NCBI GenBank assembly: GCA_049513715.1
Contig: JBEKVV010000003.1
Coordinates: forward strand, 128,001-192,000
Length of the DNA: 64,000 bases
Direction: 5' to 3'
DNA from: Candidatus Bathyarchaeia archaeon
Lineage (GTDB): Archaea; Thermoproteota; Bathyarchaeia; 40CM-2-53-6
Shown one piece after another: positions 5,579 through 51,126 of the stretch. The number at the start of each line of letters is the position of its first letter. Positions within the stretch are counted from its first letter, which is position 1. The notes under the pieces are model-generated. The model was not told the origin of the DNA. It did no database searches and saw only the letters and a program-made list of their open reading frames with translations. Position numbers and translations under genes: made by a program.

Positions 5579-6556
5579 CTAGGTTTTGCTGAGCTGTTTC
5601 ACCGCATCGTTCAAAGCAGGTATTATTTGGTATAGGTCTGCCACTACACCGTAATCGCTGAACTCGAAGATTGGAGCCTTCGGGTCATTGTTGACCGCTA
5701 CGATTATTCTACTATTTCTGATTCCTGTGAGATGCTGAATTTGGCCTGAGATTCCGAAGGCAAAGTACAATTTCGGGCTGACCTTCTGGCCTGAAAGGCC
5801 TACGTATTGCTCCTCCGGCAACCAACGCAAATCCTCCGCTATGGGCCTAGAACATCCAATTACTCCCCCAACCATCTGAGCAAACTGTTCCAACATGGCC
5901 ATATCCTCCTTCTTCCTGACCCCCCGCCCAAATGAAACAATGATTGGCGCGTCAGCGAGTTTAACTCCCTTCGCAGTTTTCGGCCTACTCTCAACCAACT
6001 TTGTGGTTGATGGCTTCACATTAGGCTCGACTCTCACGACCTCCCCCTTTCGCGTGGAGTCTGCAGCGAGTGGAACGAAAAGTCCCCTGGGTACCGTAGC
6101 TACTTGCGGTGTCGACCTGCAGATCTGCGTCTCAACGAGATTACCGCCCAAGGTGATTCTGTCCATCAATAGGAATTTCTTCTCAGCGTCGACTTCCAAG
6201 CGAGTTACTTCAGTCACGCAACCAGTCTTCAACCGCTCAGACAAGCGCGGGGCAAACTCTAGCCCATTCCTGGTGGCACCTATGAGGAGTATGTCTGGTT
6301 TCTGTTCAGCCGCCAGATTCGCCATTGCGTCAGTGTATGTATCCACGTTGAAGACATCCAGCGCCGGGTTGTTCAGCACGAACACTTTGTCAGCACCATG
6401 CTGAACGTAGCCCTGAGGATCCTGTCCTGAGCCAATGGAAACCGCTACCAGTTGCGTACCTAACTGATTTGCTAATGCTCTCCCCTTCCCGAGCAACTCG
6501 AAAGCCAGCTGTGATACCTCCGAGAATACCCAGACCCCTCCGTGTTCTTGTGACAT
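5579..6556 (-). CDS. etfA: electron transfer flavoprotein alpha subunit
   Basis: GCSRP, VGLSGQKVSPKLY, GISGQIQH, VNNDPKAPIF. Confidence 0.95.
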   Translation of the reverse strand: MSQEHGGVWVFSEVSQLAFELLGKGRALANQLGTQLVAVSIGSGQDPQGYVQHGADKVFVLNNPALDVFNVDTYTDAMANLAAEQKPDILLIGATRNGLEFAPRLSERLKTGCVTEVTRLEVDAEKKFLLMDRITLGGNLVETQICRSTPQVATVPRGLFVPLAADSTRKGEVVRVEPNVKPSTTKLVESRPKTAKGVKLADAPIIVSFGRGVRKKEDMAMLEQFAQMVGGVIGCSRPIAEDLRWLPEEQYVGLSGQKVSPKLYFAFGISGQIQHLTGIRNSRIIVAVNNDPKAPIFEFSDYGVVADLYQIIPALNDAVKQLSKT

Positions 6557-6558
6557 AC

Positions 6559-7353
6559 CTAACTCGCCTTGAGAACCCCTTCCTGAATGAGAGCCTTCAC
6601 GAGCTTAGGAGCAATCTCCCTCGCCTCACCTTGAAACATTACTCGCTTTCTGTCCCCAACTGAAACTGTGCCCCTTAGGACTTCCACCAGAGCCCCATTG
6701 AATCCAAGCTCCTCCGCGCTTAGGTGCAAGTCTTCGGAAGTCCATGTTTTCATGGGTTTCTTGGAAGCAGCCATGATCGCCATGAGCGTTGGGAGGCGTG
6801 GTTCGTTGATCTCCCTCACAACAGAAACCAAGCAGGGTAGCTTTCCCTCCACTACTTGCCGCTCGTTCTCTAGGTCCCTCTCAGCCGTAATCTTTGTTCC
6901 TTCCACGGTGATCTTGGAGGCGTAAGTGATCTGCGGCAGATTGCATATTTCCGCCAACCTTGGGCCGACCTGGAAGGCGAACAAGTCCTCAGAGTACGCG
7001 CCGCACAGGATCAGGTCGTAATCCAAGATGTTCGTGACTGCTGCCGCCAAGACGTTTGCCACGGCGTGCGCGTCGGAGCCCTCGAACAACGGATCGCTTA
7101 GCAGGTACCCTTCGTCAGCCCCCATGGCCAAAGCTTCTCTAAGCGCCTCCTTGGCGTCAGGCGAACCCATAGTAATAACGGTGATTTTGCCGCCATGCTT
7201 CTCCTTTATCCTGACTGCTTCTTCAATGGCGTTCTTGTCGGATTCGCTGATGACCCTTGGAACGCCTTGGGTGACTATGGTCTTGGTTGACTTGTCGACC
7301 CTTAGTCCTTCAGTCTGAAGAACATGCTTCGCGAGCACTATGACGTGTAGCAT
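6559..7353 (-). CDS. etfB: electron transfer flavoprotein beta subunit
   Basis: ALAMGAD, INEPRLP; adjacent to etfA. Confidence 0.95.
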   Translation of the reverse strand: MLHVIVLAKHVLQTEGLRVDKSTKTIVTQGVPRVISESDKNAIEEAVRIKEKHGGKITVITMGSPDAKEALREALAMGADEGYLLSDPLFEGSDAHAVANVLAAAVTNILDYDLILCGAYSEDLFAFQVGPRLAEICNLPQITYASKITVEGTKITAERDLENERQVVEGKLPCLVSVVREINEPRLPTLMAIMAASKKPMKTWTSEDLHLSAEELGFNGALVEVLRGTVSVGDRKRVMFQGEAREIAPKLVKALIQEGVLKAS

Positions 7354-7495
7354 CGATCATCACAGCCCAATCACCCTCAACAAAACGTCTGGACTTAAGA
7401 ATTGCGAAGCAACCTGATTAACAAGGCCGTCATGTTGAGTCGCCTAAATTTTCGGCTTCGGTCTCGGCAAGAAGTATGCGAAGTTTGGAGCGGGG

Positions 7496-8698
7496 CTATT
7501 CCCATTTTTCCCAAGGGACGAATTCTCTACCCAGCAATTGCAGTGCTATGACGATTTTCTGGGCACTTCTAGTGCCTTCGGCGATGACCGCCTGCCTGAC
7601 TACTCGGAAGACTTGTTGAACATCGTATTCCGTGGTTGTTCCAAGCCCCCCATACCATTCGAGGACATCGCTTACAGCCTTAACGCAGTGCTCGGACGCC
7701 ACAAGTTTCGCCGTGGACGCGCCCATCATCGCGTCGAAGAACGAGGCTTTCCCTTTGTGGTACTGGTCGATGAGCCATGCAGCCCGATAGCAGAGCCACT
7801 TGGCCGCTTGAACGTTCGAGTAGTCTTCTGCAAGTTCAAATTGAATGCCTTCATGGGCGCCGATGGGTCGACCGAACGCTTTCCTTTGTCTTATGTATTC
7901 GATCCCTTTTTCAAGAGAAACTTCGGCTGCTGCGACGATGCTCATGGTCGTTGGAACTCGCGCGTGAACAAATGATTCGTAGGTCATCTGGTATCCGGCT
8001 CCCTCGAACCCGACGAGGTAACGTTCTGGGACCCGTGTGTTCTCATACCTGATTCCGCCGATGTCTATTCCCATTCCGGTGTAGTTGGAAGTGGTAATTC
8101 CGTTTGAACTGGACGGAATGTAGAGCAGGCTCATGCCTTTACTTCCCAACTCTGGTCGCGTCTTGACTGAGGTGATGTATCCTCCTCCGTACTTCACAAC
8201 CTCTGGGACGCAGCTGAGACAGATCTTCTCCCCATTGACCACGTACTCTCCGTCGGTTTTCTTCGCCGTTGTGGTTATGGCCGTGAAGTCCGTTCCGCAA
8301 CTTGGCTCAGTGGAGTGTAACGGCGTCACCCAACCATCCTTCACGATTCTTGGAAGAATCTCATCTTTCAACTCTGCATTGCCATAGACTGAGAGCAGGC
8401 GCGCGCATGAAGCACCGTACCATGCGGCCAGGCCCGCGAAGCCGGTGGCGTCACCGCGCGTCAATTCCTCGACTGCGATGATGAAGGTAACGTAATCAGA
8501 ATTCGCACCACCATACTCCGAAGGAAGTAGCAGACCGAAGAAGCCGGCGTCTGTGAGGGCTTTGTGCACTTCCGGCGTGAGAATCCTAGCCTGAGTTAAT
8601 TCCTTGGCTCTCGGTGCAACTGCTTTGCTCATCAGTTCTCGAATACTTCTTCGGAAGAGTTCTTGCTCTTCCGTGAAAGTGAATTCTAATGGCATCAC
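7496..8698 (-). CDS. acyl-CoA dehydrogenase family protein
   Basis: TEPSCGTD, VNGEK, RKAFGRPI, GGLG, IAEGT. Confidence 0.93.
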   Translation of the reverse strand: MMPLEFTFTEEQELFRRSIRELMSKAVAPRAKELTQARILTPEVHKALTDAGFFGLLLPSEYGGANSDYVTFIIAVEELTRGDATGFAGLAAWYGASCARLLSVYGNAELKDEILPRIVKDGWVTPLHSTEPSCGTDFTAITTTAKKTDGEYVVNGEKICLSCVPEVVKYGGGYITSVKTRPELGSKGMSLLYIPSSSNGITTSNYTGMGIDIGGIRYENTRVPERYLVGFEGAGYQMTYESFVHARVPTTMSIVAAAEVSLEKGIEYIRQRKAFGRPIGAHEGIQFELAEDYSNVQAAKWLCYRAAWLIDQYHKGKASFFDAMMGASTAKLVASEHCVKAVSDVLEWYGGLGTTTEYDVQQVFRVVRQAVIAEGTRSAQKIVIALQLLGREFVPWEKWE

Positions 8699-8875
8699 AT
8701 AACCTCCTTACTTCATTTTTTTCCTTTGAACTCGGGTTTTCTTTTTGACATGAATGCTGAGACGCAGAAATGAGAAATTGAAGGTGGACTAATATACGGT
8801 ATGGTTCTAATGCGCGTTCGATCCTCAGATGCAACCAGCAATTGAGGAACCGTAGGATGTGGAGCTGGGCACCTC

Positions 8876-9304
8876 TTGTTCGAGATTCCATCTTTCATCG
8901 CTGGGCTCATCGCTTTCCTCTTCGTCTTTCTGCTGATGGGGATGTTGTTCTTTGTTCTCAGAGAGGAGAGAGACAAGACGATGCCGTCGTTGAACACTCT
9001 TGAACCTACTGACTTGGTGAGATTAGAGAATCCTCTTTCATCCGTTGATGCTCCATTCGTTGCGATCATTACGCTGGTAACTCTGGAAGTCGCACTGGAA
9101 GTATTGATAGTTGTCAGCGCCCTTCAAGGAATAGGATCGATTGCTATGGGGACCATGCTCGCGGTCGCAACATTCCTTGCAGCAGCCATCTTGGCAGTCT
9201 ACAGAAGCGCCTTCATGAGCGATGCGTTCACGAGAAAACCTCGGTTGGAGACGGTGGCCGCGCGCCAGCTCGAGAAAGCTCGTCAGAGTGATGAGCATGA
9301 GTGA
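8876..9304 (+). CDS. membrane protein (about 3 TM), first gene of Rieske/cytb operon
   Basis: Hydrophobic segments; overlaps Rieske start; no CxxCH. Confidence 0.75.
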   Translation: MFEIPSFIAGLIAFLFVFLLMGMLFFVLREERDKTMPSLNTLEPTDLVRLENPLSSVDAPFVAIITLVTLEVALEVLIVVSALQGIGSIAMGTMLAVATFLAAAILAVYRSAFMSDAFTRKPRLETVAARQLEKARQSDEHE

Positions 9305-9935
9305 GAAGATCGCTCCCGATTCTGGAAAGAAAGCGCGGCATTCGGTTAGCAGACGTCACTTTATCCAGATGATGGTTGCCGTAGGTTCCTTGGGAACCGT
9401 CGCCTCCTTTCTAACACTTCTTACGTCTCTCCTACCAGGCTCAGGAACTGGTGAGCAACAGGGCGAAGTTGACAACACCTTCCGGTACGGTCCAGAAAAG
9501 GGAACTTGGTATTCCGACAAGTCAGGGACTGAGGTGAAGGTGGAGGATTTCGATCAGGTCGGAAAGGGTGCGGGAGTCCTTTGGCGCGGTAATATCCCGG
9601 CGATTCTCATCCGCGTTGATGAAAGTAAGCTTCGGGGCGCAACATCGAACAGCGGATTGATTGCCTTTTCGAGCACCTGCACGCATCTCTGCTGCATAGC
9701 CACGTGGCACCTAGACCGACCAAGCGAGGACGTCCTCTTCTGCAGATGCCATGACGGCATCTTCGATCCGTATGATATTGTAAAAGACATCATGCCGAAT
9801 GGTGTCGAGTATAAAGGAGCGAGAGTAGTCGGTGGACCACCGCCGAGAGCTGCGCCGATCATCCCTGTTGAAATAAAGGATGGAAAAGTCGCCGGCGTTC
9901 CCTCGAATCTAGAGACCTATGCGTACTGTGGGTGA
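9291..9935 (+). CDS. petA: Rieske 2Fe-2S subunit of a Rieske/cytochrome b complex
   Basis: Tat-like SRRHF plus TM helix; CTHLCC and CRCHDG boxes; GPPPR; start 9291 or 9297. Confidence 0.9.
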   Translation: MSMSEKIAPDSGKKARHSVSRRHFIQMMVAVGSLGTVASFLTLLTSLLPGSGTGEQQGEVDNTFRYGPEKGTWYSDKSGTEVKVEDFDQVGKGAGVLWRGNIPAILIRVDESKLRGATSNSGLIAFSSTCTHLCCIATWHLDRPSEDVLFCRCHDGIFDPYDIVKDIMPNGVEYKGARVVGGPPPRAAPIIPVEIKDGKVAGVPSNLETYAYCG

Positions 9936-11281
9936 ATCACACAATGACCACACGCGGAAAGAGAGTCTACGAATGGCTCGACAGGCGCCTTCTCATCTCT
10001 CCGCTCATTGCGAAAACTCAAAGAACAATCAACTTTGCGTTACCGAGCACGCTCACAAGACAGAATAGATCACGAGTCTTCTGGTTCATTTATCCCTACT
10101 ATTATGCAGGAGCTATCACAGCATTTCTCGCTATCCTGCAAGGAATCACAGGACTCCTTCTCGCCTTCAACTACGTTCCATCCGCCGTCGGCGCCCCAGG
10201 AACACCAACACAGGCCTACTTGAGCGTCCAAAACATCATGAGAACCGTTCCGCTCGGAGCCTTGATCAGAGGAATGCACCAGTGGGGCGCCAACCTTCTA
10301 GTCGCCGCCGTAACCGTCCACGCGTTCTGGGCGTTTTTCCGCAGCCCGTACAGAGTCGGCCGCGAACTGACTTGGTTCCTAGGCGTTTTCAGCCTGGGCT
10401 TGGCACTTGCGTACTCGTTCTCAGGTTATCTCCTTCCGTGGGACCAGTTGGGCTACTGGGCCGCAACTATAAGCATCCAGATAATAAGAGCAATCCCACT
10501 CTTGGGGGACTTCCTAGCTCAGATCCTCTTGGGCGGAACAGGATTATCGGCGACCACACTGACAAGAATCTACTTCTACCACGTGAGTCTCCTCCCTGTT
10601 GTCGCCCTTGTTCTTGTCGGGGCGCATATGCTACTAGTCATCCTTCAGGGAGTGTCGGAACCTGAAGAAGCATGGAAGACCAGAAGCGAAAAGCAAGCAG
10701 CTCCCCTCTTCGGTCCATTGTTTCCACAACAGATTGCTCCAGTCTTGTTAGTCTCTCTGGTTACGCTAGGGATAGTTCTGCTATTGAGTGCATTCGCCGT
10801 CCAATTTCCGGGCGACCCGGCGAACAAGTTCCTGACGCCGCAATTCATAGTTCCAGAGTGGTACTTCCTGTGGGCATATGGACTACTCAAATGGGTAGGA
10901 TGGATCTACGACATGGTACATTTTGCACCTCCATCCGCAGTCTTCGGCGTCGATCTCCTAAGCGCGAAGGTGGTTGGGATCCTATTCGCCGCGGTATTGT
11001 TCCTCGTCCTTCTACTCCTACCCATAATTGACCGTGGCAAAGAAATCCGGGCGCTTCGGAGACCACTGAAGACAGCCATAGGCGTGTGGGCGATCGGATT
11101 TCTGGCCACCCTGACGCTCTATGCCTTGAATGAGATTCTATCAGTAGATCTTTCTATTCCAATCGATACGCTGAATCTGATTCTCGGATCCATCGTAATC
11201 ACTGTACCCCTCGTCGTAGCCGCACCCGTCTACTTGATGCTCCACCAACATGTGGCGAGGGGGCTTCATAGGAGGGAATGA
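9932..11281 (+). CDS. petB: cytochrome b, fused form
   Basis: RGMHQW...VH, SGYLLPWDQ, YH...AH, PEWY motif; GTGA overlap with Rieske stop. Confidence 0.93.
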   Translation: MNHTMTTRGKRVYEWLDRRLLISPLIAKTQRTINFALPSTLTRQNRSRVFWFIYPYYYAGAITAFLAILQGITGLLLAFNYVPSAVGAPGTPTQAYLSVQNIMRTVPLGALIRGMHQWGANLLVAAVTVHAFWAFFRSPYRVGRELTWFLGVFSLGLALAYSFSGYLLPWDQLGYWAATISIQIIRAIPLLGDFLAQILLGGTGLSATTLTRIYFYHVSLLPVVALVLVGAHMLLVILQGVSEPEEAWKTRSEKQAAPLFGPLFPQQIAPVLLVSLVTLGIVLLLSAFAVQFPGDPANKFLTPQFIVPEWYFLWAYGLLKWVGWIYDMVHFAPPSAVFGVDLLSAKVVGILFAAVLFLVLLLLPIIDRGKEIRALRRPLKTAIGVWAIGFLATLTLYALNEILSVDLSIPIDTLNLILGSIVITVPLVVAAPVYLMLHQHVARGLHRRE

Positions 11282-11282
11282 A

Positions 11283-13193
11283 ATGGATCTCATCAGAAAT
11301 ATCTTTCAGTTTGTTCCTCTGCCCTTCGTTATTGCTTGGTGGATAATTGCAGCAGTCACAGTCTACCTGTTCTTTGTCGGCCTCAGAAGACACGTGCGTG
11401 CTTGGATGAAAGGAAGACCTGAGAAGGTCTCGGGTACTCGGCTTTCTAGGTTAGGTAGATTCGTCTCGCTTGGTCTTGGGCAGTCAAAGGTTCTCAACAA
11501 GAAGTACAACGGAATCAACCATTTGTTGATCTCGATAATCGGCTTCCTGTTGCTCCTCGGAATGTTCTTCCCAGTTCTCGAAACAATCGTAGGCTACGTC
11601 GCCTTACTCTTTGGGGTTGGATTGGTACTGCTGGAATTCAGGCGCCTCAAAACCACCGAGCCGAAGCTTGAGACCGCCTGGGAGGACTCGTTCGTATACG
11701 GCGTAATTGTCGCGATGGCAGTTTCAGGGTTCCTCATGATGGGTGTCAATACTTGGGCTTGGAGGTCTCCGGTAGGCAGCCTGCTCTCTCCACTCTTTGG
11801 TTCACTGGGGCCGAAGGCGCTTGTTGAAGTCTACCCGAGCCTATGGTTGCTTCACTCTGCGCTTGTCTTCTCACTCATTGCCTACATACCAAACTCACGC
11901 CTGATACACCTAATCACTTCTCCCCTCAACATCTACTACACGCCAACGGCCGTGAAAGGCGAGTTATCAACGCCCTTCGATCTGAAGCAGATGATGGAGA
12001 CGGGAAACTTCGATGTCAAGATCGGAGCCACCGAAATTGATGACTTTACTTGGCGCCAGAAGCTCAGCTTCGACTCATGCACCCTGTGCAAACGCTGCAC
12101 AGACGCCTGCCCAGCAACAACCGCCGGAACGAAACTATCACCCATGCACCTCATACTCAAACTAAAGAATCATGAATTAGCTCTCGACACCGATCGACAT
12201 CTCCATGGAGATGTAATAGATGCAGAAGAGCTTTGGGCGTGTACTACTTGTCGTGCGTGCGTGCAGGAATGCCCTGTCCTCATTCAACACGTCGAGGCCA
12301 TCTATGATATGCGTAGGCATCTAATGGCTGAAGGAAAGGTGGACCGAAAAAAAAGAGACCTCATCACTTACCTCTCGACCGCCGGCAACCCATACGGGCT
12401 CCCCAGCTCAGACCGAATGAAATGGGCAGACGGGCTGGACGTCAAGCTGTGGGGCGAAGAACCTGACCAAGAAATCCTGTACTGGGTTGGATGCGCAGGA
12501 TCATACGACATGAGGAACCAAATGGTTTCACGCGCCTTCGTCAAAATCATGAGAACAGCAGGCGTGAGATTCGGTGTCCTAGGAAACGAGGAAAAATGCA
12601 ACTGTGAAGTTGCCCGCCGAGTCGGAGAGGAGGGAAGATTCCAGCAAGCAGCGACGGAATTGATAGAGCTGATGAACAAGCGCGGTGTGAAGAAGATTGT
12701 CACCCAATGTCCACACTGCTTCAACACTTTCAAGAACGAGTATCCGAGATTCGGCGCAGAGTTCGAAGTCGTGCACCACACGCAACTCATATCGAAACTG
12801 ATACGCGATGGGAGGCTGAGGCTCAAGGAAGGAAAGGGGCAGAGCATTGCATTCCATGATCCTTGCTACTTGGGCAGATACAACGAAGAGTACGAAGCTC
12901 CGCGCGAAACAATTCGAACCATCTCGGCCGGAAAACTGGTGGAATTGCCTAGATGTCGTGCGAAGAGTTTCTGTTGCGGCGGCGGAGGTGGAAACACGTG
13001 GTATACCGTGGAAGCCGAGAAGAAACCTAGCGTGATAAGGATCGAGGAGGCGCGTAAGGTAGGCCCTAGCATCCTTGCAGCAGCATGTCCGTATTGCATC
13101 TCCATGTTCGAGGACGCCTCAAAGGCCCTAGGAACATCGGAGAGCATGCCAATCAAAGATATAGCCGAGTTAGTCGTTGAAGCATTAGAGTAA
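11283..13193 (+). CDS. membrane-bound Fe-S oxidoreductase (FadF/HdrF/ETF:quinone oxidoreductase-like)
   Basis: N-terminal TM domain with His residues, two CxxCxxCxxxCP motifs, two CCG-type domains (FHDPCYLGR, CCGGGGG, ACPYC). Confidence 0.9.
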   Translation: MDLIRNIFQFVPLPFVIAWWIIAAVTVYLFFVGLRRHVRAWMKGRPEKVSGTRLSRLGRFVSLGLGQSKVLNKKYNGINHLLISIIGFLLLLGMFFPVLETIVGYVALLFGVGLVLLEFRRLKTTEPKLETAWEDSFVYGVIVAMAVSGFLMMGVNTWAWRSPVGSLLSPLFGSLGPKALVEVYPSLWLLHSALVFSLIAYIPNSRLIHLITSPLNIYYTPTAVKGELSTPFDLKQMMETGNFDVKIGATEIDDFTWRQKLSFDSCTLCKRCTDACPATTAGTKLSPMHLILKLKNHELALDTDRHLHGDVIDAEELWACTTCRACVQECPVLIQHVEAIYDMRRHLMAEGKVDRKKRDLITYLSTAGNPYGLPSSDRMKWADGLDVKLWGEEPDQEILYWVGCAGSYDMRNQMVSRAFVKIMRTAGVRFGVLGNEEKCNCEVARRVGEEGRFQQAATELIELMNKRGVKKIVTQCPHCFNTFKNEYPRFGAEFEVVHHTQLISKLIRDGRLRLKEGKGQSIAFHDPCYLGRYNEEYEAPRETIRTISAGKLVELPRCRAKSFCCGGGGGNTWYTVEAEKKPSVIRIEEARKVGPSILAAACPYCISMFEDASKALGTSESMPIKDIAELVVEALE

Positions 13194-13212
13194 TTGTAAT
13201 CGAACAGGCCGA

Positions 13213-14259
13213 GTGATGTTGAAGAACATTAAGGTAGTCCAATATGGCTTGGGGCCGATCGGACTCGGAATCGTTGACGTCCTTCTAGCTAGACCGTGGG
13301 TTCAGTTGGTCGGCGCAATAGACATCGACAAGAAAAAAGTTGGAAAAGATGTGGGCCAACTCCTTGAGAACCCTAAGAACACAGGAGTGATCGTTAGCGA
13401 TAAGGCGAGTGACGTACTGAAACGTACATCTCCCCACGTTGTGACACACGCCACTTCCTCATACATGAAGACAGTACACCCTCAAGTTTCGGAACTCGTC
13501 CGTTATGGCGTGAATGTTGTTTCAACAGCTGAAGAGCTCTCGTATCCTTTTGTCAAGTACCCAGATTTGGCCAAAGAACTAGACGACCGCGCCAAGGAGA
13601 AGAAAGTGGTCGTGCTTGGGACGGGAGTGAATCCTGGCTTTCTGCTTGACACTCTGGTAGTAGTCATGAGCGGAGTATGCCAGAAAGTCAATTCGATTCG
13701 GGCTGAGCGAGTAGTAGACGCGTCTAGACGAAGGCTGCCACTTCAAAGGAAGATTGGAGCAGGACTGACCCCCGCAGAGTTCGAAAAGAAGGTCGCAGAA
13801 GGATCGATAAAACACGTAGGCTTGCCAGAATCTGTGGGTCTCATTGCCCTAGCAATGGGATGGAAAGTAGGCGAAATCCAAGAGAGAATCACCCCAATAG
13901 TTGCCGAGAAAGATGTGAGCAGTGAGTTCTTGAAAGTTCCAGCTGGCGCTGTCGCAGGTGTACGGCAGGTCGCGAAAGGAATCCTAGCCGGTTTCGAATT
14001 AGTTGTGCTTGATTTGAGAATGTACTTGGGCGCCCAGAATCCGCATGATTCGATTTTGATAGATGGTCTTCCACCTGTCGATATGACGATTCGGGGAGGA
14101 GTTCATGGAGATATCGCAACGCCTGCGACCATCGTCAACTCGCTTCCGAAGATTGAGCGTTTGGAACCAGGCTTGCGAACGATGGTTGACCTCCCACCTA
14201 TCGCACCTTGCCTGAATTTCCCTGAAAGCGACCGGTCAGTTATGCTCAAGACATTCTAG
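13213..14259 (+). CDS. NAD(P)H-dependent amine dehydrogenase (2,4-diaminopentanoate dehydrogenase/DapB-like)
   Basis: GLGPIG Rossmann motif, STAEEL, GTGVNPGF, GDIAT. Confidence 0.85.
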   Translation: MMLKNIKVVQYGLGPIGLGIVDVLLARPWVQLVGAIDIDKKKVGKDVGQLLENPKNTGVIVSDKASDVLKRTSPHVVTHATSSYMKTVHPQVSELVRYGVNVVSTAEELSYPFVKYPDLAKELDDRAKEKKVVVLGTGVNPGFLLDTLVVVMSGVCQKVNSIRAERVVDASRRRLPLQRKIGAGLTPAEFEKKVAEGSIKHVGLPESVGLIALAMGWKVGEIQERITPIVAEKDVSSEFLKVPAGAVAGVRQVAKGILAGFELVVLDLRMYLGAQNPHDSILIDGLPPVDMTIRGGVHGDIATPATIVNSLPKIERLEPGLRTMVDLPPIAPCLNFPESDRSVMLKTF

Positions 14260-20885: not shown

Positions 20886-21956
20886 TCATTTTCTGCTACG
20901 AGCGGGACGACCGCCCATGGTCATAGCCATCACGGCCTTTTGCACGTGCAATCTGTCCTCTGCCTGTTCGAAGTACAAGGAGTAATCCGCGTTGTCTATC
21001 ACGTCGTCCGTAACTTCTTGGCCTCGGTCTGCGGGGCCGCAATGCATGTACTTGCCTTTGCTGGTCAAGTCCATCATTTCTTGCGTGCAAATCCAGTCTT
21101 TGAATTTGTCCTGGTACGTGGTAGCGCCGGTCTTGTCGAGTTCTGCGCTGTGCGGGGGGAAGTAGTTCTTCGGAGACCACGCTTTCGGGTAGACTACGTC
21201 TGCCCCTTCAAAGGCCTCTTTCATATCGTTGACGACGCGGAATCCTCCACCGTATTTGTCCGCGTTCGCTTTCGCTGCGTCGAGCACAACATCTTCAAGT
21301 TCAAACCCCTGAGGGTGCGCGAGAACAACATCCATTCCCAAATGAGTCCCAATCAGGACCTCGCTTTGGGGAACGGCGAGTGGTTTGAGGCCCCCTGAGT
21401 ATGCGTACGAAACGACAAGTTTCTTTCCAGCCAGCTTTGGTATCGCGGCCCTCATGGCCTGGGCATCGGCTAGGGCTTGGAATGGATGGTACATGTCATC
21501 CTCCATGTTTAGGACCGGAATGGTGGCGTGCTTTGCGAACTCTTTGACGACCTTGTGGCCTCTGCCAATGTTCCATTTGGCAGCGTCGCCGTAGATCCTG
21601 ATTGCAATAGCATCACCGTACCGACTTAGCACTCTGCTTACGTCGGATATGGCTTCAGTCTGGTATGCCACCATATCTTCTGGGAGGGCCGGAGTGTAGA
21701 CGTCTTGTGGGCTGAGAAAGTGCGCATGGCCCCCGAGCTGGTACATGCCAGCTTCGAACGAGTTGCGCGTCCTCAGCGACCGGTTGTAAAAGAACATGAA
21801 CAGAGTCTTACCAGGAAGGTAATGGTGCGGTTTACGCGCCCGGAACATTTTCCTTAAGACGTCAGCCGCGTTCAGAACCTTCTTGATCTCCTCTTGCGAG
21901 AAATCGTTTGTATCTAGGAAATGCTTTCCTTTCAGATCGCCAACGAATGATGCCAA
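20886..21956 (-). CDS. carbamoyltransferase, AOTCase/YgeW-like
   Basis: SLRTR, HPFQ, YAYSGGLKPLAVPQS, HCGP. Confidence 0.85.
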   Translation of the reverse strand: MASFVGDLKGKHFLDTNDFSQEEIKKVLNAADVLRKMFRARKPHHYLPGKTLFMFFYNRSLRTRNSFEAGMYQLGGHAHFLSPQDVYTPALPEDMVAYQTEAISDVSRVLSRYGDAIAIRIYGDAAKWNIGRGHKVVKEFAKHATIPVLNMEDDMYHPFQALADAQAMRAAIPKLAGKKLVVSYAYSGGLKPLAVPQSEVLIGTHLGMDVVLAHPQGFELEDVVLDAAKANADKYGGGFRVVNDMKEAFEGADVVYPKAWSPKNYFPPHSAELDKTGATTYQDKFKDWICTQEMMDLTSKGKYMHCGPADRGQEVTDDVIDNADYSLYFEQAEDRLHVQKAVMAMTMGGRPARSRK

Positions 21957-21992
21957 AATGAATCCCTCGGTTTGTCACGGTCACTATTCGAA

Positions 21993-22955
21993 TTAAGCTT
22001 TTAGCACCACGACGTGCGTTCCAGTTCTACCTTCTAGGGCCTCCGTGAGGCTTTCGAGTTTGGCGATTATCGCTCTCTCTCCACCGCTTTCAACGAATCT
22101 GATGGCGGCCTCGATTTTCGGTGCCATGCTGCCTTCTTTGAAATGGCCCTCTTTGAGGTAGTTCCTCAGTTTCCCGGAGGTGATTTCATGAATCATTTCT
22201 TGTTGAGGAGTTCCGTAGTTGATGTAAGCTCCATCTATGTCAGTTAGAATCACGAAAATGTTGGCTCCAATCAAAGTGGCCAAACGTTGCCCTCCCAAGT
22301 CTTTGTCAATGACTGCTTCTACGCCGACAGCGAGGTCGTTCTCTTCTATTATTGGGATTCCTCCGCCACCGGTTGATATAACTACGAACCCGGCATCGAC
22401 GAGTGCCTTGATTGCCGATCGCTCTGCGATGACTTTAGGGTCGGGTGATGGGACTACTCGCCGGTAACCGCGGCCGGCATCCTCCTTGATAACCAAGTTC
22501 GGTTTTTCTTGCCTCAGCTTGGCAGCTTCATCTTTCGAGTAGAATGGGCCAATTGGTTTTGTTGGGTTCTGGAACGCAGAGTCATGTTTGTCGACAATGA
22601 CTCGCGTTACTACAGCCACAACATATTTGTCGATTCCGCGGGTTTTTAATTCGTTCCTCAGCGCCTGCTCAATCATATAGCCAATGAACCCTTGTGTCTC
22701 TGCCCCGCAAGCATCCAGAGGAAAGGCTGGCACTATTGCTTTTGCTGCTTCATGCCTGAGAAGCGTTGCGCCGACCTGCGGCCCATTGCCATGAGTTAGG
22801 ACTACTTTGTAGCCCTGCTCGATTAGGTCAGCAATCTTTGGGACAGTACCCTTTGTGTTTTGGTATTGTTCCTCGAACGTGCCCTTCTGACCACGTTGAA
22901 GGAGTGCGTTGCCGCCCAGTGCGATTACGACGAGCTTCTCTGCCAACTCTCTCAC
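21993..22955 (-). CDS. arcC: carbamate kinase
   Basis: ALGGNA, THGNGPQVG, PTKPIGP, RRVVPSP, EAVIDKD, GSMAPK. Confidence 0.95.
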   Translation of the reverse strand: MRELAEKLVVIALGGNALLQRGQKGTFEEQYQNTKGTVPKIADLIEQGYKVVLTHGNGPQVGATLLRHEAAKAIVPAFPLDACGAETQGFIGYMIEQALRNELKTRGIDKYVVAVVTRVIVDKHDSAFQNPTKPIGPFYSKDEAAKLRQEKPNLVIKEDAGRGYRRVVPSPDPKVIAERSAIKALVDAGFVVISTGGGGIPIIEENDLAVGVEAVIDKDLGGQRLATLIGANIFVILTDIDGAYINYGTPQQEMIHEITSGKLRNYLKEGHFKEGSMAPKIEAAIRFVESGGERAIIAKLESLTEALEGRTGTHVVVLKA

Positions 22956-23076
22956 ACCAATAACTCGAAGTGCAGACAGTTGCCAGTTCTAGGCCTTATG
23001 AACTTGTCACATTTAGATTAGCAACGCCTATTTACAACATAAAATCGTCCAACAGGAAAGACTGGAGCTCAACTGA

Positions 23077-24090
23077 TTGCCCAAAGCTGACTTGTCAGGA
23101 AAGGATCTGATCACCACACAAGACTGGTCGATCGAAGAACTCGACGCCACCCTCAAAATGGCGCGAAAGCTGAAGGCCGATTATCACCGAGGACGAGTTC
23201 CACACCTTCTCAGTGACAAGACGTTCTTCATGCTCTTCTACGCCCCTTCAACAAGAACACGGGCTGCCTTTGAGGCCGGTATGACATACCTTGGGGGGCA
23301 TGCCCAGTACATTGATGTCTCAACAACTCGTCTAGGATCCGGGGAGGCTGCGAAGGATGTTGCGAAAATGTACGAGAAATATGGACACGGCCTAGGCGTC
23401 CGAATTCTGGATTCAGCAATCGATTACGTTTACGGTGCAGGCATCTCCGTTGTGCGGGAGTACGCGGCGCACTCCGAAATTCCTGTCATAAACATGGCCT
23501 GCTGCACATACCACCCTACCCAAGGCCTGGCCGACCTGATGACGACTCAAGAAGCCTTGGGGAGAGTGAAGGGAAAGAAGTACGTGATAATGTGGGGGTA
23601 CTCTACGAGCTTCCGCGGCCGGTGCAGCATACAAGAAGAAGCCCTTATCCTCCCACGCTACGGGATGCATGTGGTTCTTGCACATCCACCAGGTTTCGAG
23701 ATCGATCCCAAGATTGTTGAGGTTGCGAAGTCGAACGCCAAAGCAGCGGGGTCCGAATTTGAAATCACAAATGACCTCGACTCAGCCCTTGAAGGAGCGC
23801 ACGCGGTGTTCCCGAGAAACTGGGCATCCAACGAGTTGCTGAGGGTTGGTGCAAGGAAGTTTGGAAAAGAAAAGGAGCTCGAGTTGCACGAGAAATATCG
23901 TAACTGGACCTTAACCCAGGAGCTCTTGGACAAGACGGATGGTAAATCAGTTGTCACACACGTACTACCGGTTCTTCGGGGCGAAGAAGCAACGGACGAG
24001 GTAATGGACGGACCGCATTCAGTCATTTATCCACAAGCTGAGAACGGGATGTACACCAAAATGGCTGTGCTGGCCTTGACGATGAGCTGA
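23077..24090 (+). CDS. ornithine carbamoyltransferase-family protein, non-canonical
   Basis: STRTR, HPTQ, HVLP, QAEN. Confidence 0.85.
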   Translation: MPKADLSGKDLITTQDWSIEELDATLKMARKLKADYHRGRVPHLLSDKTFFMLFYAPSTRTRAAFEAGMTYLGGHAQYIDVSTTRLGSGEAAKDVAKMYEKYGHGLGVRILDSAIDYVYGAGISVVREYAAHSEIPVINMACCTYHPTQGLADLMTTQEALGRVKGKKYVIMWGYSTSFRGRCSIQEEALILPRYGMHVVLAHPPGFEIDPKIVEVAKSNAKAAGSEFEITNDLDSALEGAHAVFPRNWASNELLRVGARKFGKEKELELHEKYRNWTLTQELLDKTDGKSVVTHVLPVLRGEEATDEVMDGPHSVIYPQAENGMYTKMAVLALTMS

Positions 24091-38141: not shown

Positions 38142-39554
38142 TTGCCTTACAAGAGTCTTGAGAGCTTCCTGACCAAGACTGACGATCCTTGTGTCAAGGA
38201 ATGGATATTGAGCCTTAGAGAGGGCTCAAAGACCTACGTGCCATACGTTCTGGATTTTGTCGAATGGGGCAAGGCTCACAAGCATTGGAAATCGCCCAGC
38301 GATGATTTGCTTCCCCGCTGGAAACGACTGCGAAAGAGCAAGAATGAGGATGCCCAGAACGACTTTCTTTCAATAATACATGACTACGTTAGTGACAAGA
38401 GTGACAGGCATGGCAAGTTAACTGGCAACGTTGACCGCCAGAACTGTTGGGCGGCAATCTGCAACTTCTTCAGACACAAACACAAGTACAAGAAAATCGG
38501 CAAGCAGCCACTGCCCGATCTAGACCCGGAAGATGAAGACCGGCTATTCAGGATAAGCGAAGGGGACAAACTGAGAGCGCAGTTCATTGGTTCTATGAAT
38601 GTGGACGAGGCAAACCTCATCATCGAAAACGCCCCAATGCCCTACCGAGCAGTCTTTGTGGTTATGCTTCAAGCCGGATTCGGTGGAGCTGAATTCCAGA
38701 TATTCAATGAAACCGCTTGGCGTGAGATCGTGAAAGACACTGCAAACCCGAAGGAATTCCCGAAGGAACTCCGTCCAGGTTCCCTCGCCAAGGTGCAGAT
38801 TCTACGCAGTAAGACAAGCCGAAGGCAAGCCCAGACGTACTACACCTATCTGACTGACGATGCGAAGAAATTGATCAGTGAGTGGCTTAGAATGCGCCCC
38901 GTCTGCGACCTACCTCACCTATTCATAATCAAGCAGAAAGGGAGAAGAAAGACTGGGACATACGCTCCAGTTACTACGCCACTTATCGAGAATACAATGA
39001 CGGCACTTGCCAAGAGGTTCAACATGTTGAGACCGCAGGAATTGCAGATTCACCGCTATCACATAACGCCGCACAAGCTCCGCAAAGTCTTCGAAGGACT
39101 CTGTCTGACTAGCGGCGTTGACGAGTGGGCGGTTGACTTCTTCCTCGGTCACAAACCCAGTCGCTACAATGAAGTGCCCTGGACAACTCCGAAAAAGATG
39201 GAAGAAGAGTATCAGAGAGCCGTACCTACGCTGAATATTCTCTCAAGTCCTAACAGGGCGAGAAGCAAACAGGATATGATGCGTGTTGCACAAACGGAAT
39301 TCAAGAAGCTGGTACTTTCTGAGAGGTTTCCGGGAAGAGAGATTACGCAAGATGATGTTGAGGGCAAGAGTATGGATGAGATTTTCAGGATGACTCGGGA
39401 GCACTCCCGGGGTCGTGAAAGGCATGCAGACAAGGTGAGAAAGCAGAAGGTCGTGTCTATGAAGGCACTTGCCAAGTGGGTTGACAGCGGCTGGGAGTTT
39501 GTGCAGAAAGTGTCCGATAAGCAGGTGATTATTCGGTCTCCGCCATCCGCTTAG
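38142..39554 (+). CDS. tyrosine recombinase/integrase
   Basis: RSKT, HKLRK (HxxR), FLGH and downstream Y; 60 bp from attL. Confidence 0.9.
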   Translation: MPYKSLESFLTKTDDPCVKEWILSLREGSKTYVPYVLDFVEWGKAHKHWKSPSDDLLPRWKRLRKSKNEDAQNDFLSIIHDYVSDKSDRHGKLTGNVDRQNCWAAICNFFRHKHKYKKIGKQPLPDLDPEDEDRLFRISEGDKLRAQFIGSMNVDEANLIIENAPMPYRAVFVVMLQAGFGGAEFQIFNETAWREIVKDTANPKEFPKELRPGSLAKVQILRSKTSRRQAQTYYTYLTDDAKKLISEWLRMRPVCDLPHLFIIKQKGRRKTGTYAPVTTPLIENTMTALAKRFNMLRPQELQIHRYHITPHKLRKVFEGLCLTSGVDEWAVDFFLGHKPSRYNEVPWTTPKKMEEEYQRAVPTLNILSSPNRARSKQDMMRVAQTEFKKLVLSERFPGREITQDDVEGKSMDEIFRMTREHSRGRERHADKVRKQKVVSMKALAKWVDSGWEFVQKVSDKQVIIRSPPSA

Positions 39555-39996
39555 CCTTTGCATCGAGCATCCTGCCGTAAGCATCGAGCATGACATCATA
39601 CTCCCATGTTGCAACCGTTTCACGCTTGTCTGACGAAATTGTATCCTTTAATTCGTTATCAATGGGAATCCAATCCCTAGCCCACTCTTGGAGCTTCTTG
39701 AGATTCGTTGTTTCCTCACGCACGACAGGTCGCACCTTTCGTTTCTGTCGCTTCTTTCTGAGAGGTTGCACACGAGTTCTGTGTTTGAGTTGTGATCTTG
39801 CAATTGCCTCTAACGCCTTCTTACGTAGAAGCTCACTGACCTTCTCTGAGGGCACTAATGCCAAGTCTCCCAGCCCAGCGATTTGCGCCGCCGTGTAGCC
39901 CGCCGTTTCAAAGAAGACAAGTCTGCCCGAACGCAACAGTTCGTTCGCTCTTTCCTTTCCGGTCTTGGAAACCTTGTCCTCTGACAATGCTAACAC
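39529..39996 (-). CDS. hypothetical protein
   Basis: 155-aa ORF convergent with the integrase; basic patch RKKRQKRK. Confidence 0.6.
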   Translation of the reverse strand: MLALSEDKVSKTGKERANELLRSGRLVFFETAGYTAAQIAGLGDLALVPSEKVSELLRKKALEAIARSQLKHRTRVQPLRKKRQKRKVRPVVREETTNLKKLQEWARDWIPIDNELKDTISSDKRETVATWEYDVMLDAYGRMLDAKAKRMAETE

Positions 39997-40168
39997 AACC
40001 GTTATTCGTTGTTGGTTTCTTATTTCTGTTGCAGGGCGGTAGTTCTAGCATATACTCACTCCAAGTCCGAAGGGATTTTCATGTTTGCATCAAGCAAATC
40101 CATTCTGAAACGACACATTTTGAGCCGTTTTGCTAATCCACAGACGACGGGTTTCCTCAAAACCGAAT

Positions 40169-40350
40169 CTAACCCTCTGAGTAAAGAGCATGCCAAGTAC
40201 GATGCTCTGCCATGTCAACCAACAGCCCACTGTAGGACTGGGCGGTTATAACTCGACCACATTTCGGGCAAGTCAGTCTGAAAAGCCGTTGACCTTTTCA
40301 TTTACAATGATGTCCGCTTCTGGCATGCCTTCTGCTTCGTGATTGGTCAT
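40169..40350 (-). pseudogene. small C2H2-like zinc-finger ORF, disrupted
   Basis: FRLTCPKCGRVITAQSYSGLLVDMAEHRTWH; upstream ATGs after GAGGAG are out of frame or cut off by a TGA. Confidence 0.4.
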
Positions 40351-40444
40351 CCATGCTCTCCTCGAAATTGCTGGTGATTCGCAAAACGCTTTACTTCGCA
40401 AAGGCTAAGGGATTCGTGCATTAACACTGTCCTGCCGATAATCC

Positions 40445-41608
40445 TTGGAAAGTCCGATACGTAAATTCAGCTATGGACGTGTGACCTTAAGGTACGGCGG
40501 TTCGCTTCCTCGACCGCAGATCATGTGGGACGGACTTGATTTGGTCAATGCGCTGCGGACACCCGTTCCTACCGATGAGCTAGTGCATGATGTGTGTGAA
40601 TTACTTTGTATTCTACTCAAGTCCGACAAGCACTATTGGCATGCCACATTGAACCGATTCTTCGAGGCATTCACACCCACCTGGAAGTCCCTAGTTAGAG
40701 AAGGCAAGATCAGTGACGCCGCTTCAATGTGGATTCACGTTTTGAGTTCTGTGCGGGCGTGGGAAAATCGCTCCGGTAATCTCATCCACAAAGGAACCCC
40801 CTATTACTTTCTCGGAGCGACATACCTTTACGGGTACGATTTCGATCGTGGTCTTCGATACATCTTTGACGCATTCGAGGAAGATAAAAGAGCAACTTCG
40901 GGCGATCCAACGTTGTACAAAGCGATGCCTGCATACAAGGTTGCATCGCTCATCGATCAACCTGACAACTATCTGTATCCAGAACTTGTCCTGCCTGCAC
41001 GAATTCGTATTGACGGATTTCTGAAAGAATATCGTTCTCGCTCAGGTTCCACCATGCAAATGGCAGATTTTGAGAGTAAGTTTCTGAGCAATTCAGTGTT
41101 CGAGATTCAAAAATTCTTCTTTGTATACTCATTGCTTGAAACAATCAAACATGAAGCGACGTGGGAACCCGGCTCCGTACGAAATGAATTCTCGGAAATG
41201 AGAAATCGAGATTTGCTATTCGATCTCTGCATAGTGGTTGACGAAATCCTGAGGGTCAGATTCCCCCCTGCAACATTCATTTCTGCAGGAGTCTTCAACT
41301 TGTGCAGGAGCAAAGGCTGGGTCACTTTGGATAGTAATTCTACTCAGCTCAATCAGAATTTGAACCCGAAGGTGGCTGAATTTCCTCCTACTCCGACACC
41401 AAGGCCAGATGTGGTTGTACCAACACTACTCGACAGGACAATGACCTATCGTGGAGCGCATCTTTCGCAGGAAATGTCGTGGATGCTACTTGCATGGCAC
41501 CTAAGGAACTATGCAGCACACGATCTCAGCCCTCAAGGTGTACTCGTTAAGAGGCATAATGAAATAACTCAAGCGCTGATGAATGCTCTGTTTACAGCAA
41601 TAGAGTGA
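40445..41608 (+). CDS. hypothetical protein with C-terminal HEPN-like RxxxxH motif
   Basis: LRNYAAH near the C-terminus; TPR-like YYFLGATY segment. Confidence 0.75.
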   Translation: MESPIRKFSYGRVTLRYGGSLPRPQIMWDGLDLVNALRTPVPTDELVHDVCELLCILLKSDKHYWHATLNRFFEAFTPTWKSLVREGKISDAASMWIHVLSSVRAWENRSGNLIHKGTPYYFLGATYLYGYDFDRGLRYIFDAFEEDKRATSGDPTLYKAMPAYKVASLIDQPDNYLYPELVLPARIRIDGFLKEYRSRSGSTMQMADFESKFLSNSVFEIQKFFFVYSLLETIKHEATWEPGSVRNEFSEMRNRDLLFDLCIVVDEILRVRFPPATFISAGVFNLCRSKGWVTLDSNSTQLNQNLNPKVAEFPPTPTPRPDVVVPTLLDRTMTYRGAHLSQEMSWMLLAWHLRNYAAHDLSPQGVLVKRHNEITQALMNALFTAIE

Positions 41609-41649
41609 ATTTCTCTTGGTAGAATAGCTTTGACGGAGGGTATCTCCTC

Positions 41650-42393: not shown

Positions 42394-42634
42394 TGTGAAG
42401 ATGTGAAAATCTCTTCTCTGCGACTGGAAAAACGAGAGCCGCAAGGTGCATTGAAAAGTGGAAATCGAAGAGCAGCAAGAAAGCGAATACGAGGCATCAA
42501 GGCGATATTTTGAAGCATAAACCGGTGTGGTTTTCGATTTGCGTTATGGCAGGGTTCATATTCTCTTTCGTTTGGCAGGCTTATGTGACAACAGATGCGA
42601 TAGTTAGACCATTGTGTCTACTGGGCGGGGTACA

Positions 42635-42784
42635 ATGAGTTATTCGGACGAGGTCGTAAACGACGTGTACGACAAGAACGGTGGGTATTGCTCTTACTGC
42701 CGCAGGAAAATTCATTTCCGAAATTACGGTGGAGGCGATGCTGTTGGTGGCTTCCCCACTACTTTACGACCGGTCGATCTTTAG
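42635..42784 (+). pseudogene. truncated HNH endonuclease N-terminus
   Basis: MSYSDEVVNDVYDKNGGYCSYCRRKIHFRNYG, then no DH/N/CxxC core; stops after 49 aa. Confidence 0.55.
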
Positions 42785-42893
42785 GGTCTATACGATTCTT
42801 CGCTGGGTCGCTCATTTGTTGCGCTGAGTCTCCTCAGCATTCTCATGGAATACGTCGTTCGTGGCACAATCAGGCTGGTGTCGGGATAGGCTA

Positions 42894-46271: not shown

Positions 46272-46276
46272 ATTAT

Positions 46277-48861: not shown

Positions 48862-49020
48862 CCACAATCAACTAGGTTGTCCGTGGGGGCGGCATGTGTC
48901 GGAATGCGTAACTTCCAGTACATCTATGTAATTTGGAGTCTTTCGGAGTATTCACAAGTACATTTGAGTCAGCCAAGTACCAAAGTTTACTTGAGGATCA
49001 TTGGAGTAGTTTTGATCGTC

Positions 49021-51119: not shown

Positions 51120-51126
51120 CATGATG

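Follow-up and report, generated by a model that had tools for sequence, protein, structure and literature searches.

We analysed a stretch of 64,000 nucleotides (the window, to whose numbering all positions refer) from contig JBEKVV010000003.1, positions 128,001 to 192,000, of a Candidatus Bathyarchaeia archaeon genome (GCA_049513715.1). At 5579–14259 it carries a locus in which genes for an electron transfer flavoprotein (ETF) stand next to genes for a Rieske/cytochrome b core and for a membrane Fe-S oxidoreductase of the EtfD/EMO type. All eight genes of the locus, three on the minus strand and five on the plus strand, were found where an earlier note on this DNA had placed them, coordinates and domain matches being in agreement:

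5579–6556, minus strand: etfA, ETF alpha subunit (325 aa; PF01012 and PF00766), partner of the module described below
6559–7353, minus strand: etfB (264 aa; PF01012)
7496–8698, minus strand: acyl-CoA dehydrogenase, ACAD (400 aa; PF00441, PF02771, PF02770)
8699–8875: divergent intergenic region of 177 nt with the presumed promoters
8876–9304, plus strand: DUF7318-like membrane protein (142 aa; PF24002 in 48 of 50 aligned homologues)
9297–9935, plus strand: Tat-type Rieske [2Fe-2S] protein (212 aa; SRRHF Tat motif, CTHLCC and CRCH boxes)
9932–11281, plus strand: cytochrome b (449 aa; PF00033 and PF00032, PEWY at 308–311)
11283–13193, plus strand: EtfD/EMO-type membrane Fe-S oxidoreductase (636 aa; NarI-like (PF02665), Fer4 and two CCG domains), here called EMO
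13213–14259, plus strand: 2,4-diaminopentanoate-dehydrogenase-like gene of the amine dehydrogenase family (PF19328)

The plus-strand genes are tightly packed, with junctions of -8, -4, +1 and +19 nt, and no c-type cytochrome gene lies inside the block. The ACAD matched Pfam ACAD domains only, with no NCBIfam equivalog above cut-off, and the NF040740 match of the amine dehydrogenase gene was likewise below cut-off. A promoter and terminator scan gave results at chance level, its sigma-70 model being the wrong promoter type for archaea, and was set aside.

Four genes form the conserved unit

Gene order was compared across 89 loci (L001–L011 and L153–L230). L152, whose sequence is that of the window, and L231, a distant locus, are not in the tally, and part of the loci come twice, as one piece of DNA from two collections, and hence are not independent samples. 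Cytochrome b was followed by the EMO gene in 49 of 49 informative loci, Rieske by cytochrome b in 69 of 77 (the eight exceptions being orphan Rieske copies), and the small DUF7318 protein preceded Rieske in 75 of 83. Downstream of EMO, the 37 informative loci had etfB (29), the amine dehydrogenase gene (7) or a second EMO gene (1); the eight loci without etfB directly after EMO carry it on the other flank, so that etfB flanks the block in 37/37, which upholds the proposed link to ETF. In contrast, the amine dehydrogenase gene was found 3' of EMO in only 7/37 loci and divergently upstream in 13/64, and a close homologue of the ACAD in just 3/89. The conserved unit is therefore four genes, coding for the DUF7318 protein, the Rieske protein, cytochrome b and the EtfD/EMO homologue, and is called the module below. 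The amine dehydrogenase gene is an incidental neighbour, and the ACAD is plausibly a recent local insertion rather than a conserved part, with a plausible role as electron donor. Of the gene order in the earlier note the core thus stands, whereas a five-gene plus-strand operon and the ACAD as a fixed part do not.

Orphan copies of the module's Rieske protein (68–69% identical) were seen at L183, L185, L186, L190, L192, L194, L195 and L200, where the neighbours are transporter- or metal-related genes; the copy at L192 has Ser in place of one cluster-ligand Cys.

Among 105 genomes of the order, the module's cytochrome b was present in 10/10 genomes of one other genus (g5), in the window genome and in 1/22 other genomes of the window's own genus, while any cytochrome b was present in 52/58 other genomes of the family and in 1/46 of the rest. 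The frame of the linked EMO is split in two in one genome (G029). A Rieske profile matched 0/400 other genomes in a sample of the phylum, which need not mean absence, and look-ups of protein clusters gave names for few distant homologues. An operon joining Rieske/cytochrome b, EMO and ETF was nowhere described in the literature searched, a search that left subscription papers largely outside.

A Rieske/cytochrome b core with a Qo site and an altered Qi site

The Rieske cluster ligands C129, H131, C150 and H153 and the C134/C152 disulfide (numbering from base 9294) were invariant in 11/11 sequences, and export is in line with an RR motif in the protein and a TatC gene in the genome. The CTHLCC box occurred in 120/120 homologues and CRCHDGxF in 115/120; the extra Cys of CTHLCC was paired with a C-terminal Cys in all 120, probably forming a second disulfide. 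Gly and Phe replace the usual Ser and Tyr at the two key positions in 115/120 homologues (GF class), for which potentials of 120–160 mV are given (PMC3509893, Fig. 3 legend), and the window Rieske protein is accordingly predicted to be of the low-potential type.

The cytochrome b joins the b6 and subunit IV parts in a single chain and has H116, H130, H217 and H232 together with PEWY in 29/29 aligned sequences. The Rhodobacter sphaeroides Qi residues K251, D252 and H217 align with P270, V271 and I237 of the window protein, P270 and V271 being present in 29/29 and residue 237 being aliphatic; Cys35 of cytochrome b6 aligns with Tyr58, leaving no haem-ci Cys. Neither form of a canonical Qi site (Lys/Asp/His of bc1 or the haem ci Cys of b6f) was thus found in the window cytochrome b, where a non-canonical site is possible. 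In R. sphaeroides the proton path fails when K251 and D252 are both removed (PMC5001787). An outer-face acceptor subunit (cytochrome c1 or f, cupredoxin or equivalent) was absent from the window block and from the blocks of its relatives. The core has the features of the Rieske protein, the haems and the Qo site, and lacks those of Qi and acceptor; it is complex III-like in part, and is not a canonical bc1 or b6f complex.

The linked EMO has a remodelled membrane domain

The assignment of the membrane Fe-S protein to the EtfD/EMO family, made in the earlier note, was confirmed by its match to Mycobacterium smegmatis EtfD (PDB 9OJN, E=1e-95), which was also the top Foldseek match. The proximal haem b His pair H80/H209 was present in 38/38 and in 76/76 sequences, H209 corresponding to H241 of EtfD, and the cubane cysteines (C266/269/272/276 and C320/323/326/330) were invariant, as were those of the CCG domains. 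H478, also invariant, corresponds to EtfD H583, which closes the Hdr substrate site and renders the cluster non-catalytic (PMC13083937); no open substrate site of the HdrDE kind was found at the window EMO's non-cubane clusters, where H478 is as in EtfD/EMO.

Linked and stand-alone EMOs differed consistently. Those encoded with the module have His spacings of +111/+129 in 25/25 cases, no EGIRL motif and Met at +14, whereas the stand-alone EMOs from related DNA have spacings of +139–141/+157–159, the EGIRL Glu and Thr at +14 in 13/13. H80, M94, H191 and H209 were found in 76/76 near-full-length homologues (of 80 matches). About 30 residues are missing from the linked EMO between the first and the distal His, and a single-chain model, which is weak (pLDDT 64.5, pTM 0.47) and was used only for helix limits, joins helices II and III with almost no loop. 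The EMO of Syntrophus aciditrophicus has His ligands at positions 87, 233 and 251; its distal twin haem has a cation bound by E187, is faced by A101 and lies under the helix II-III region (bioRxiv 10.64898/2026.08.18.745454). The window EMO was mapped onto this protein by His spacing, from its published description and not by sequence alignment; on this basis the EGIRL Glu of stand-alone EMOs, 46 residues before the distal His, takes the position of E187. The window EMO lacks the features of a twin-heme EMO, having no helix II-III cover, no Ca-binding Glu and no distal site. Because the ~30 residues, the EGIRL Glu and the helix II-III cover are gone, the linked EMO has lost the distal twin-heme/quinone site, and it may have either no distal haem, as in EtfD, or a single His191/Met94 haem.

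The window EtfB reads SDPLFEGSDAHA and GAYSEDLFAFQVG where the bifurcating CarD has SDRAFGGADTWA and GRQAIDGDTAQVG, and the replacements were seen against other solved bifurcating EtfBs as well. We take these motifs to relate to the second FAD and to NADH. FixCX genes lie with other ETF sets of the genome and not at the window locus, and the window ETF is probably non-bifurcating.

DUF7318 as a candidate adaptor

The DUF7318 protein has three hydrophobic helices (6–35, 58–84 and 88–113) with conserved intramembrane acids (D58, E71 and D/E75). A fold search with its model returned only generic helical hairpins (Z ≤8.8), and all ESM Atlas matches were below 0.9. When cytochrome b (residues 5–442), the DUF7318 protein (1–135) and EMO (1–375) were co-folded, EMO scored 0.67 against 0.46 for the best control, passing a mark reached by 116/157 solved complexes and 2/215 mismatched pairs. 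The runs shared at least 93% of contacts with a partner pLDDT of at least 74, and the score fell to 0.00 once cytochrome b was replaced. At the predicted interface, DUF7318 helices 54–112 lie against EMO helices I and V. The co-fold narrowly supports docking of EMO through DUF7318, which would act as an adaptor between cytochrome b and EMO; of the single supercomplex suggested in the earlier note, EMO binding is supported, by a narrow pass, rather than shown.

The module appears to have replaced a stand-alone EMO

In relatives of the same genus without the module, the locus has the order amine dehydrogenase (divergent), EMO, etfB, etfA, with a stand-alone EMO that is ~50% identical to the linked one. 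This native-type EMO was found in 19/21 genomes of the genus without the module (16 full-length, three split or partial) and in 0/12 genomes with it; the module replaces the native EMO. Locus L168 holds both, the module being inserted in inverted orientation between the native EMO and etfB. We propose that loss of the native EMO from an L168-like arrangement would give the window layout and would align the amine dehydrogenase gene with the module by accident, and that the ACAD arrived after this loss; at L156 an ACAD occupies the same place within a beta-oxidation cluster. The window etfB groups with the etfB genes of stand-alone-EMO loci and so appears to be part of the native EMO-etfB-etfA operon found throughout the genus.

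Between the window and g5-type loci, the module proteins have median identities of 69–76%, whereas EtfB, EtfA, the amine dehydrogenase and the reductase have 48–62%. In trees of subsets of 43 (EtfB) and 30 (linked EMO) rows, a long branch parts the window and g5 groups for EtfB and not for the linked EMO. Because the module proteins stay similar across genera while EtfB, EtfA and the neighbours diverge, the data fit transfer of the module between genera as a unit without etfB; as to its direction, the tree is rooted on a long branch.

Outside the family, the nearest relatives are L012 (titled Geothermarchaeales) and L013 (titled Bathyarchaeia). They share the small protein or the Rieske type, their b6 is split, and their subunit IV carries a fused HdrD-like Fe-S domain, with HdrA next in order. 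At L012 (123–9561), L013 and L231 this fusion is followed by FrhB-like, HdrA, MvhD and HdrD genes, and at L231 a six-haem cytochrome c lies upstream of DUF7318, Rieske and b6. Fusions with PF00032 and PF02754 made up 18 of 89 matches (protein clusters); the closest seven have no Qi Lys/Asp pair, while six more distant readable ones keep Arg-Asp. Repeatedly, then, a CCG Fe-S wire is tied to cytochrome b in this clade; the window version has lost cytochrome c and the fused Fe-S domain and has gained one EMO.

Host, electron acceptors and quinone

The window genome (2.79 Mb, 11 contigs) is given as 99.4% complete and 8.79% contaminated. The best 11 cytochrome b loci (74–80% identical) are titled Bathyarchaeia or Bathyarchaeota, several of them being likewise flanked by cdc48 and a geranylgeranyl reductase gene, and full-coverage Cdc48 homologues are 85–93% identical with flanks in common, which places the host in the class Bathyarchaeia, as supposed. 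Haem-copper enzymes were found in 51/58 other genomes of the family and CdhC in 3/58. Since the former are common and the latter is rare, the host is not a Wood-Ljungdahl acetogen, and the counts fit the oxidase-bearing Houtuarculales lineages described previously (PMC10321748, PMC11619403; also the review PMC12694404). With such lineages already published and four Rieske/cytochrome b sets in this genome, the view of the earlier note that respiration would be unexpected in Bathyarchaeia does not hold. One genome of the genus (G051) had 22 molybdopterin-oxidoreductase matches, compared with 0–3 in the others.

Of the four Rieske/cytochrome b sets, A is that of the window, B has a Rieske protein with Ser and Tyr at the key positions (SY) and lies with a cupredoxin and CyoE, C has an SF Rieske and an EB_dh haem protein, and D has a GF Rieske, a split b6 with the haem-ci Cys and sdhCDAB. 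The two Ser-type sets thus have an outer-face partner in the operon, while the two low-potential sets stand beside a cytoplasm-facing dehydrogenase (EMO or Sdh). Set D lies on contig G000:C3, ~110 kb beyond the locus described here (L241:1648–7001), directly upstream of a small membrane ORF and sdhCDAB; the Sdh anchors have two His each, making this a complex III-complex II operon with no outer acceptor. Among 15 split-type matches fetched, 13 lay upstream of sdh genes, all 13 with Gly/Ala and Phe at the key positions, and the remaining two were of another type (SF).

The genome also carries Nuo-like and Mvh/Hdr-like genes (named from sequence, not by family scan), NrfD-type genes, three further ETF sets and an oxidase resembling cytochrome bd. 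It has a single haem-copper enzyme, in which WWGLDMIADGNV stands in place of the GHPEVY of oxygen reductases, with Asp for the first CuB His and no Tyr, which is the gNOR pattern; this active-site check ruled out its reading as a B-family oxidase of an aerobic chain. A gNOR may oxidise quinol (PMC11214002). The enzyme is encoded with a CuA-less cupredoxin subunit (L082:7961–10183), and the same type was seen in 6/8 relatives' loci read, so that some of what is counted as 'cytochrome c oxidase' in this family may be NO reductase. PF01578 (cytochrome c maturation), COX2 (CuA oxidase), NirK and NosZ were not found in the genome. A search for terminal oxidases, which the earlier note had called for, therefore yielded the bd-like enzyme, and no CuA oxidase beside the gNOR-like one. 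In genus g5, where the module is present in 10/10 genomes, haem-copper enzymes exceeded the cut-off in 3/10 and bd was found in 2/10; four of five haem-copper loci read were gNOR-like and one was HPEVY-type with in-frame stops. An HPEVY-type oxidase was present in 1/10 of these genomes, NirK in 0/10 and a cupredoxin in 6/10. Three genomes (G027, G032 and G033) hold the module and no PF13473 or PF00127 cupredoxin. No enzyme taking electrons from the Rieske side was found in the window genome or in most of its module-bearing relatives.

MenG (over cut-off) and two MenA-like genes were found, the MenA-like type being present in 53/58 family genomes and beside the module in 28/79 loci. Neither of the known routes of ring synthesis was found in the genome: futalosine MqnA/D occurred in 2/105 genomes of the order, Escherichia coli MenC, MenD and MenF queries gave no match at E 0.01, and MenB, MenE and MenH found general family members only. 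The quinone pathway sought on the advice of the earlier note is thus seen in its MenA-like and MenG genes and not in its ring synthesis, and the quinone would come from naphthoate salvage or a novel route. An earlier study reports no known quinone pathway for the Bathyarchaeia studied there (PMC11697101).

Two other arrangements of related content were noted in the genome. At L088:7052–12031 an NrfD-type membrane subunit, a Tat-type Fe-S protein and two cupredoxin-like proteins with no c-type cytochromes form an alternative-complex-III-like group, and a DoxD-family membrane protein adjoins Rieske proteins at L084:1473–4688 and L086:7604–9037.

A possible ETF:quinone oxidoreductase wired through the Rieske/cytochrome b core

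With acyl-CoA/ETF at about -10 mV, menaquinone at about -70 mV and methylmenaquinone at -156 mV (PMC12954380; bioRxiv 10.64898/2026.08.18.745454), transfer from ETF to quinone is uphill, and a twin-heme EMO pays one charge per electron for it. Our tentative interpretation, held with a little less than even confidence, is that the module codes for a four-subunit ETF:quinone oxidoreductase in which EMO is wired directly to the Rieske/cytochrome b core and quinone is turned over at Qo. Its premises (the gene block, the cofactor ligands, the loss of the distal EMO site and of the Qi residues, and the replacement of the native EMO) come from the sequences themselves. The complex would link the ETF/acyl-CoA pool to a membrane quinone of lower potential, moving electrons between the two with coupling to the proton motive force, and would take over the job of the stand-alone twin-heme-type EMO. 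ETF would dock on the Fe-S wire of EMO, as in EtfD/EMO, while the quinone chemistry would be shifted to Qo of cytochrome b, on the outer side of the membrane. The EMO membrane domain would exchange electrons directly with the core, standing in for cytochrome c, possibly by means of one distal haem (H191 and M94) uncovered by the loop deletion, and/or it would replace the Qi exit that haem bH has lost. Were both arms to end in EMO, the charge balance would equal that of a twin-heme EMO, at one charge per electron with protons taken up or released outside, and no outside acceptor would be required. The likely direction would be acyl-CoA oxidation into the quinone pool, with the reverse possible for enoyl-CoA reduction.

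Direct wiring is suggested because the module replaced a twin-heme EMO, is without the distal site of that enzyme, retains Qo while Qi is gone, and shows no outer acceptor. It is supported by the remodelling of EMO, which tracks linkage exactly (25/25 and 76/76 versus 13/13), by the position of low-potential Rieske sets with a cytoplasm-facing dehydrogenase and of Ser sets with an outer-face partner, and by the relatives in which subunit IV is fused directly to an HdrD-like Fe-S domain. A bolder version, which we consider rather unlikely, makes EMO itself the redox partner of the Rieske protein: one His/Met haem would replace cytochrome c1, two electrons from ETF would be confurcated at Qo onto a quinone of low potential at the expense of the proton motive force, and the Sdh-linked set and the IV-HdrD fusions would be a second and a third case. 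Several observations weigh against direct wiring. The co-fold puts DUF7318 between the chains, with only cytochrome b residue 288 touching EMO, and direct transfer from haem bH to EMO may span too far a distance in this model; the pass was narrow (margin +0.21 against a mark of +0.20, with an unrelated control at 0.46), and a three-chain job is unlike the calibration set. M94 sits in a wholly invariant stretch (L90, F95 and F96 too), in which conservation need not mean haem ligation, and M. smegmatis EtfD retains the distal His without a haem (per bioRxiv 10.64898/2026.08.18.745454). Two other cytochromes b of the genome likewise depart from the canonical Qi pattern. Finally, the genomes of module-bearing relatives are 69–95% complete, and the presence of the high-potential set B, with its cupredoxin and CyoE, in a genome where we found no haem-copper oxidase that reduces oxygen means that the assembly may lack oxidase genes; nor do related genomes count as independent samples.

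The same complex could instead work in series: ETF would reduce a single-haem EMO like that of M. smegmatis, which reduces quinone near the inner face, and the neighbouring Qo would immediately oxidise the quinone and pull the uphill step. From the Rieske protein electrons would go on to a cupredoxin, or to an acceptor outside (humic quinones, Fe(III)), supplied from elsewhere, with the EMO quinone site perhaps doubling as Qi. EtfD offers a precedent, with one haem b beside menaquinone (PMC13083937), and the proximal pair H80/H209 is retained; the genome has cupredoxin-like proteins, the co-fold fits a shared quinone space equally well, beta-oxidation genes moved beside the module in L156, and 3–5 ACADs were present in 5/5 g5 genomes checked. 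We regard this as only slightly less likely than direct wiring, given that no cupredoxin-fed oxidase, NirK or NosZ was found in the genome or in most g5 genomes, that the three genomes named above hold the module without either cupredoxin family, and that the canonical Qi residues are gone. The replaced Qi residues and the lack of a Rieske-side acceptor enzyme also make doubtful the plain chain of the earlier note (ETF, EMO, quinone, Q cycle, oxidase), of which the genes, the identity of EMO and the link to ETF stand. That EMO and the Rieske/cytochrome b core are separate, co-regulated enzymes sharing only the quinone pool, the EMO deletion being an independent single-haem move, is unlikely: the deletion coincides with linkage with no exception in the sets examined, the co-fold passes and needs cytochrome b, and the module genes moved between genera as a unit while etfB did not. 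Operons do often group enzymes of one pathway that make no contact, cytochrome b scarcely touches EMO in the co-fold, and the eight orphan Rieske copies indicate that parts can move alone.

In an open Q cycle of the anammox type, quinol oxidised at Qo would send one electron over the Rieske protein to a high-potential acceptor outside and the other, of low potential, from bH via EMO to ETF for cytoplasmic reduction. A cycle of this type has been proposed for anammox complexes (PMC12954380, PMC5600118) and would agree with the missing Qi residues, with the HdrA/MvhD genes adjoining the IV-HdrD fusions at L012/L013 and with the six-haem cytochrome c upstream at L231. It is very unlikely here, as the window Rieske protein is of the low-potential type, compared with +303/+335 mV for the anammox proteins (PMC12954380), the ETF looks non-bifurcating and so needs no low-potential electrons, and no outside acceptor was found. 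Chance adjacency of unrelated genes hardly comes into consideration: the ACAD and amine dehydrogenase genes are indeed chance or recent neighbours, but for the core, whose four-gene order is kept in two orientations and two genera, it is refuted.

Comparison with known systems

Both halves of the module belong to known families, and the Rieske/cytochrome b-EMO-ETF combination is new as far as the literature was searched. To our knowledge, every described Rieske/cytochrome b complex passes one electron to an outer-face carrier; if direct wiring is true, an ETF oxidoreductase partner facing the cytoplasm would be a different use of Qo, coupling near-zero-mV donors to a low-potential quinone. The window EMO shares with M. 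smegmatis EtfD (9OJN; PMC13083937) the NarI-like anchor, two cubane clusters, two CCG domains, the proximal His pair and H478 (H583 there). It differs in His spacing (111, compared with 145 for His78-His223 of EtfD), in having C-N-C rather than C-T-G at the distal cluster, and in that its gene stands with those of a Rieske/cytochrome b core, to which it is predicted to bind. With the S. aciditrophicus EMO (bioRxiv 10.64898/2026.08.18.745454) it has in common the domain order, three conserved membrane His and an ETF partner. By spacing, stand-alone EMOs from the host genus match the twin-heme hallmarks of that protein, whereas the window EMO has neither the helix II-III cover nor a Glu equivalent to E187 and, again by spacing, has Met at the A101 position.

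As in the anammox complexes (Kuste4569–74 and Kustd1480–85; PMC12954380, PMC5600118), for which a non-standard exit from the low-potential chain is likewise proposed, a Rieske/cytochrome b core is encoded in an operon with a large cytoplasmic Fe-S enzyme. Those complexes, as described, have an NAD(P) oxidoreductase, multihaem c, haem ci and a Rieske protein of high potential, none of which is present in the module, where the partner is a membrane-anchored EMO. The mitochondrial ETFDH-complex III metabolon (PMC10896730) offers a parallel in that an ETF-oxidising enzyme works in association with complex III; ETFDH, however, is a flavoprotein unrelated to EMO, and its partner is a canonical complex III with cytochrome c1. 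The haloarchaeal halocyanin-Rieske/cytochrome b cluster (PMC3509893) resembles the module in having no cytochrome c, eight helices in total and no haem-ci Cys, and its cytochrome b is split as at L012/L013. It differs in its halocyanin, split cytochrome b and SY Rieske, as against the GF Rieske, fused cytochrome b, EMO and ETF of the window. In the window genus, twin-heme-type EMO alone, module alone and both together occur, which makes the genus a natural comparison. Two enzyme designs from one locus make the climb of acyl-CoA electrons into a menaquinone-type pool testable, and the module offers definite targets in the search for the membrane electron carrier of Bathyarchaeia; to respiration as such, already known in some Bathyarchaeia, it adds little. 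DUF7318 itself is presumably linked to the haloarchaeal halocyanin cluster.

Other features of the window

Two further regions of the window were noted, their genes being named by sequence appearance. At 20886–24090 two carbamoyltransferase-like genes lie beside a carbamate-kinase-like gene. The region 38142–54000, which starts with an integrase-like gene, contains restriction-modification-like genes and drops in GC to 43–47% from 40 kb, is probably an integrated element.

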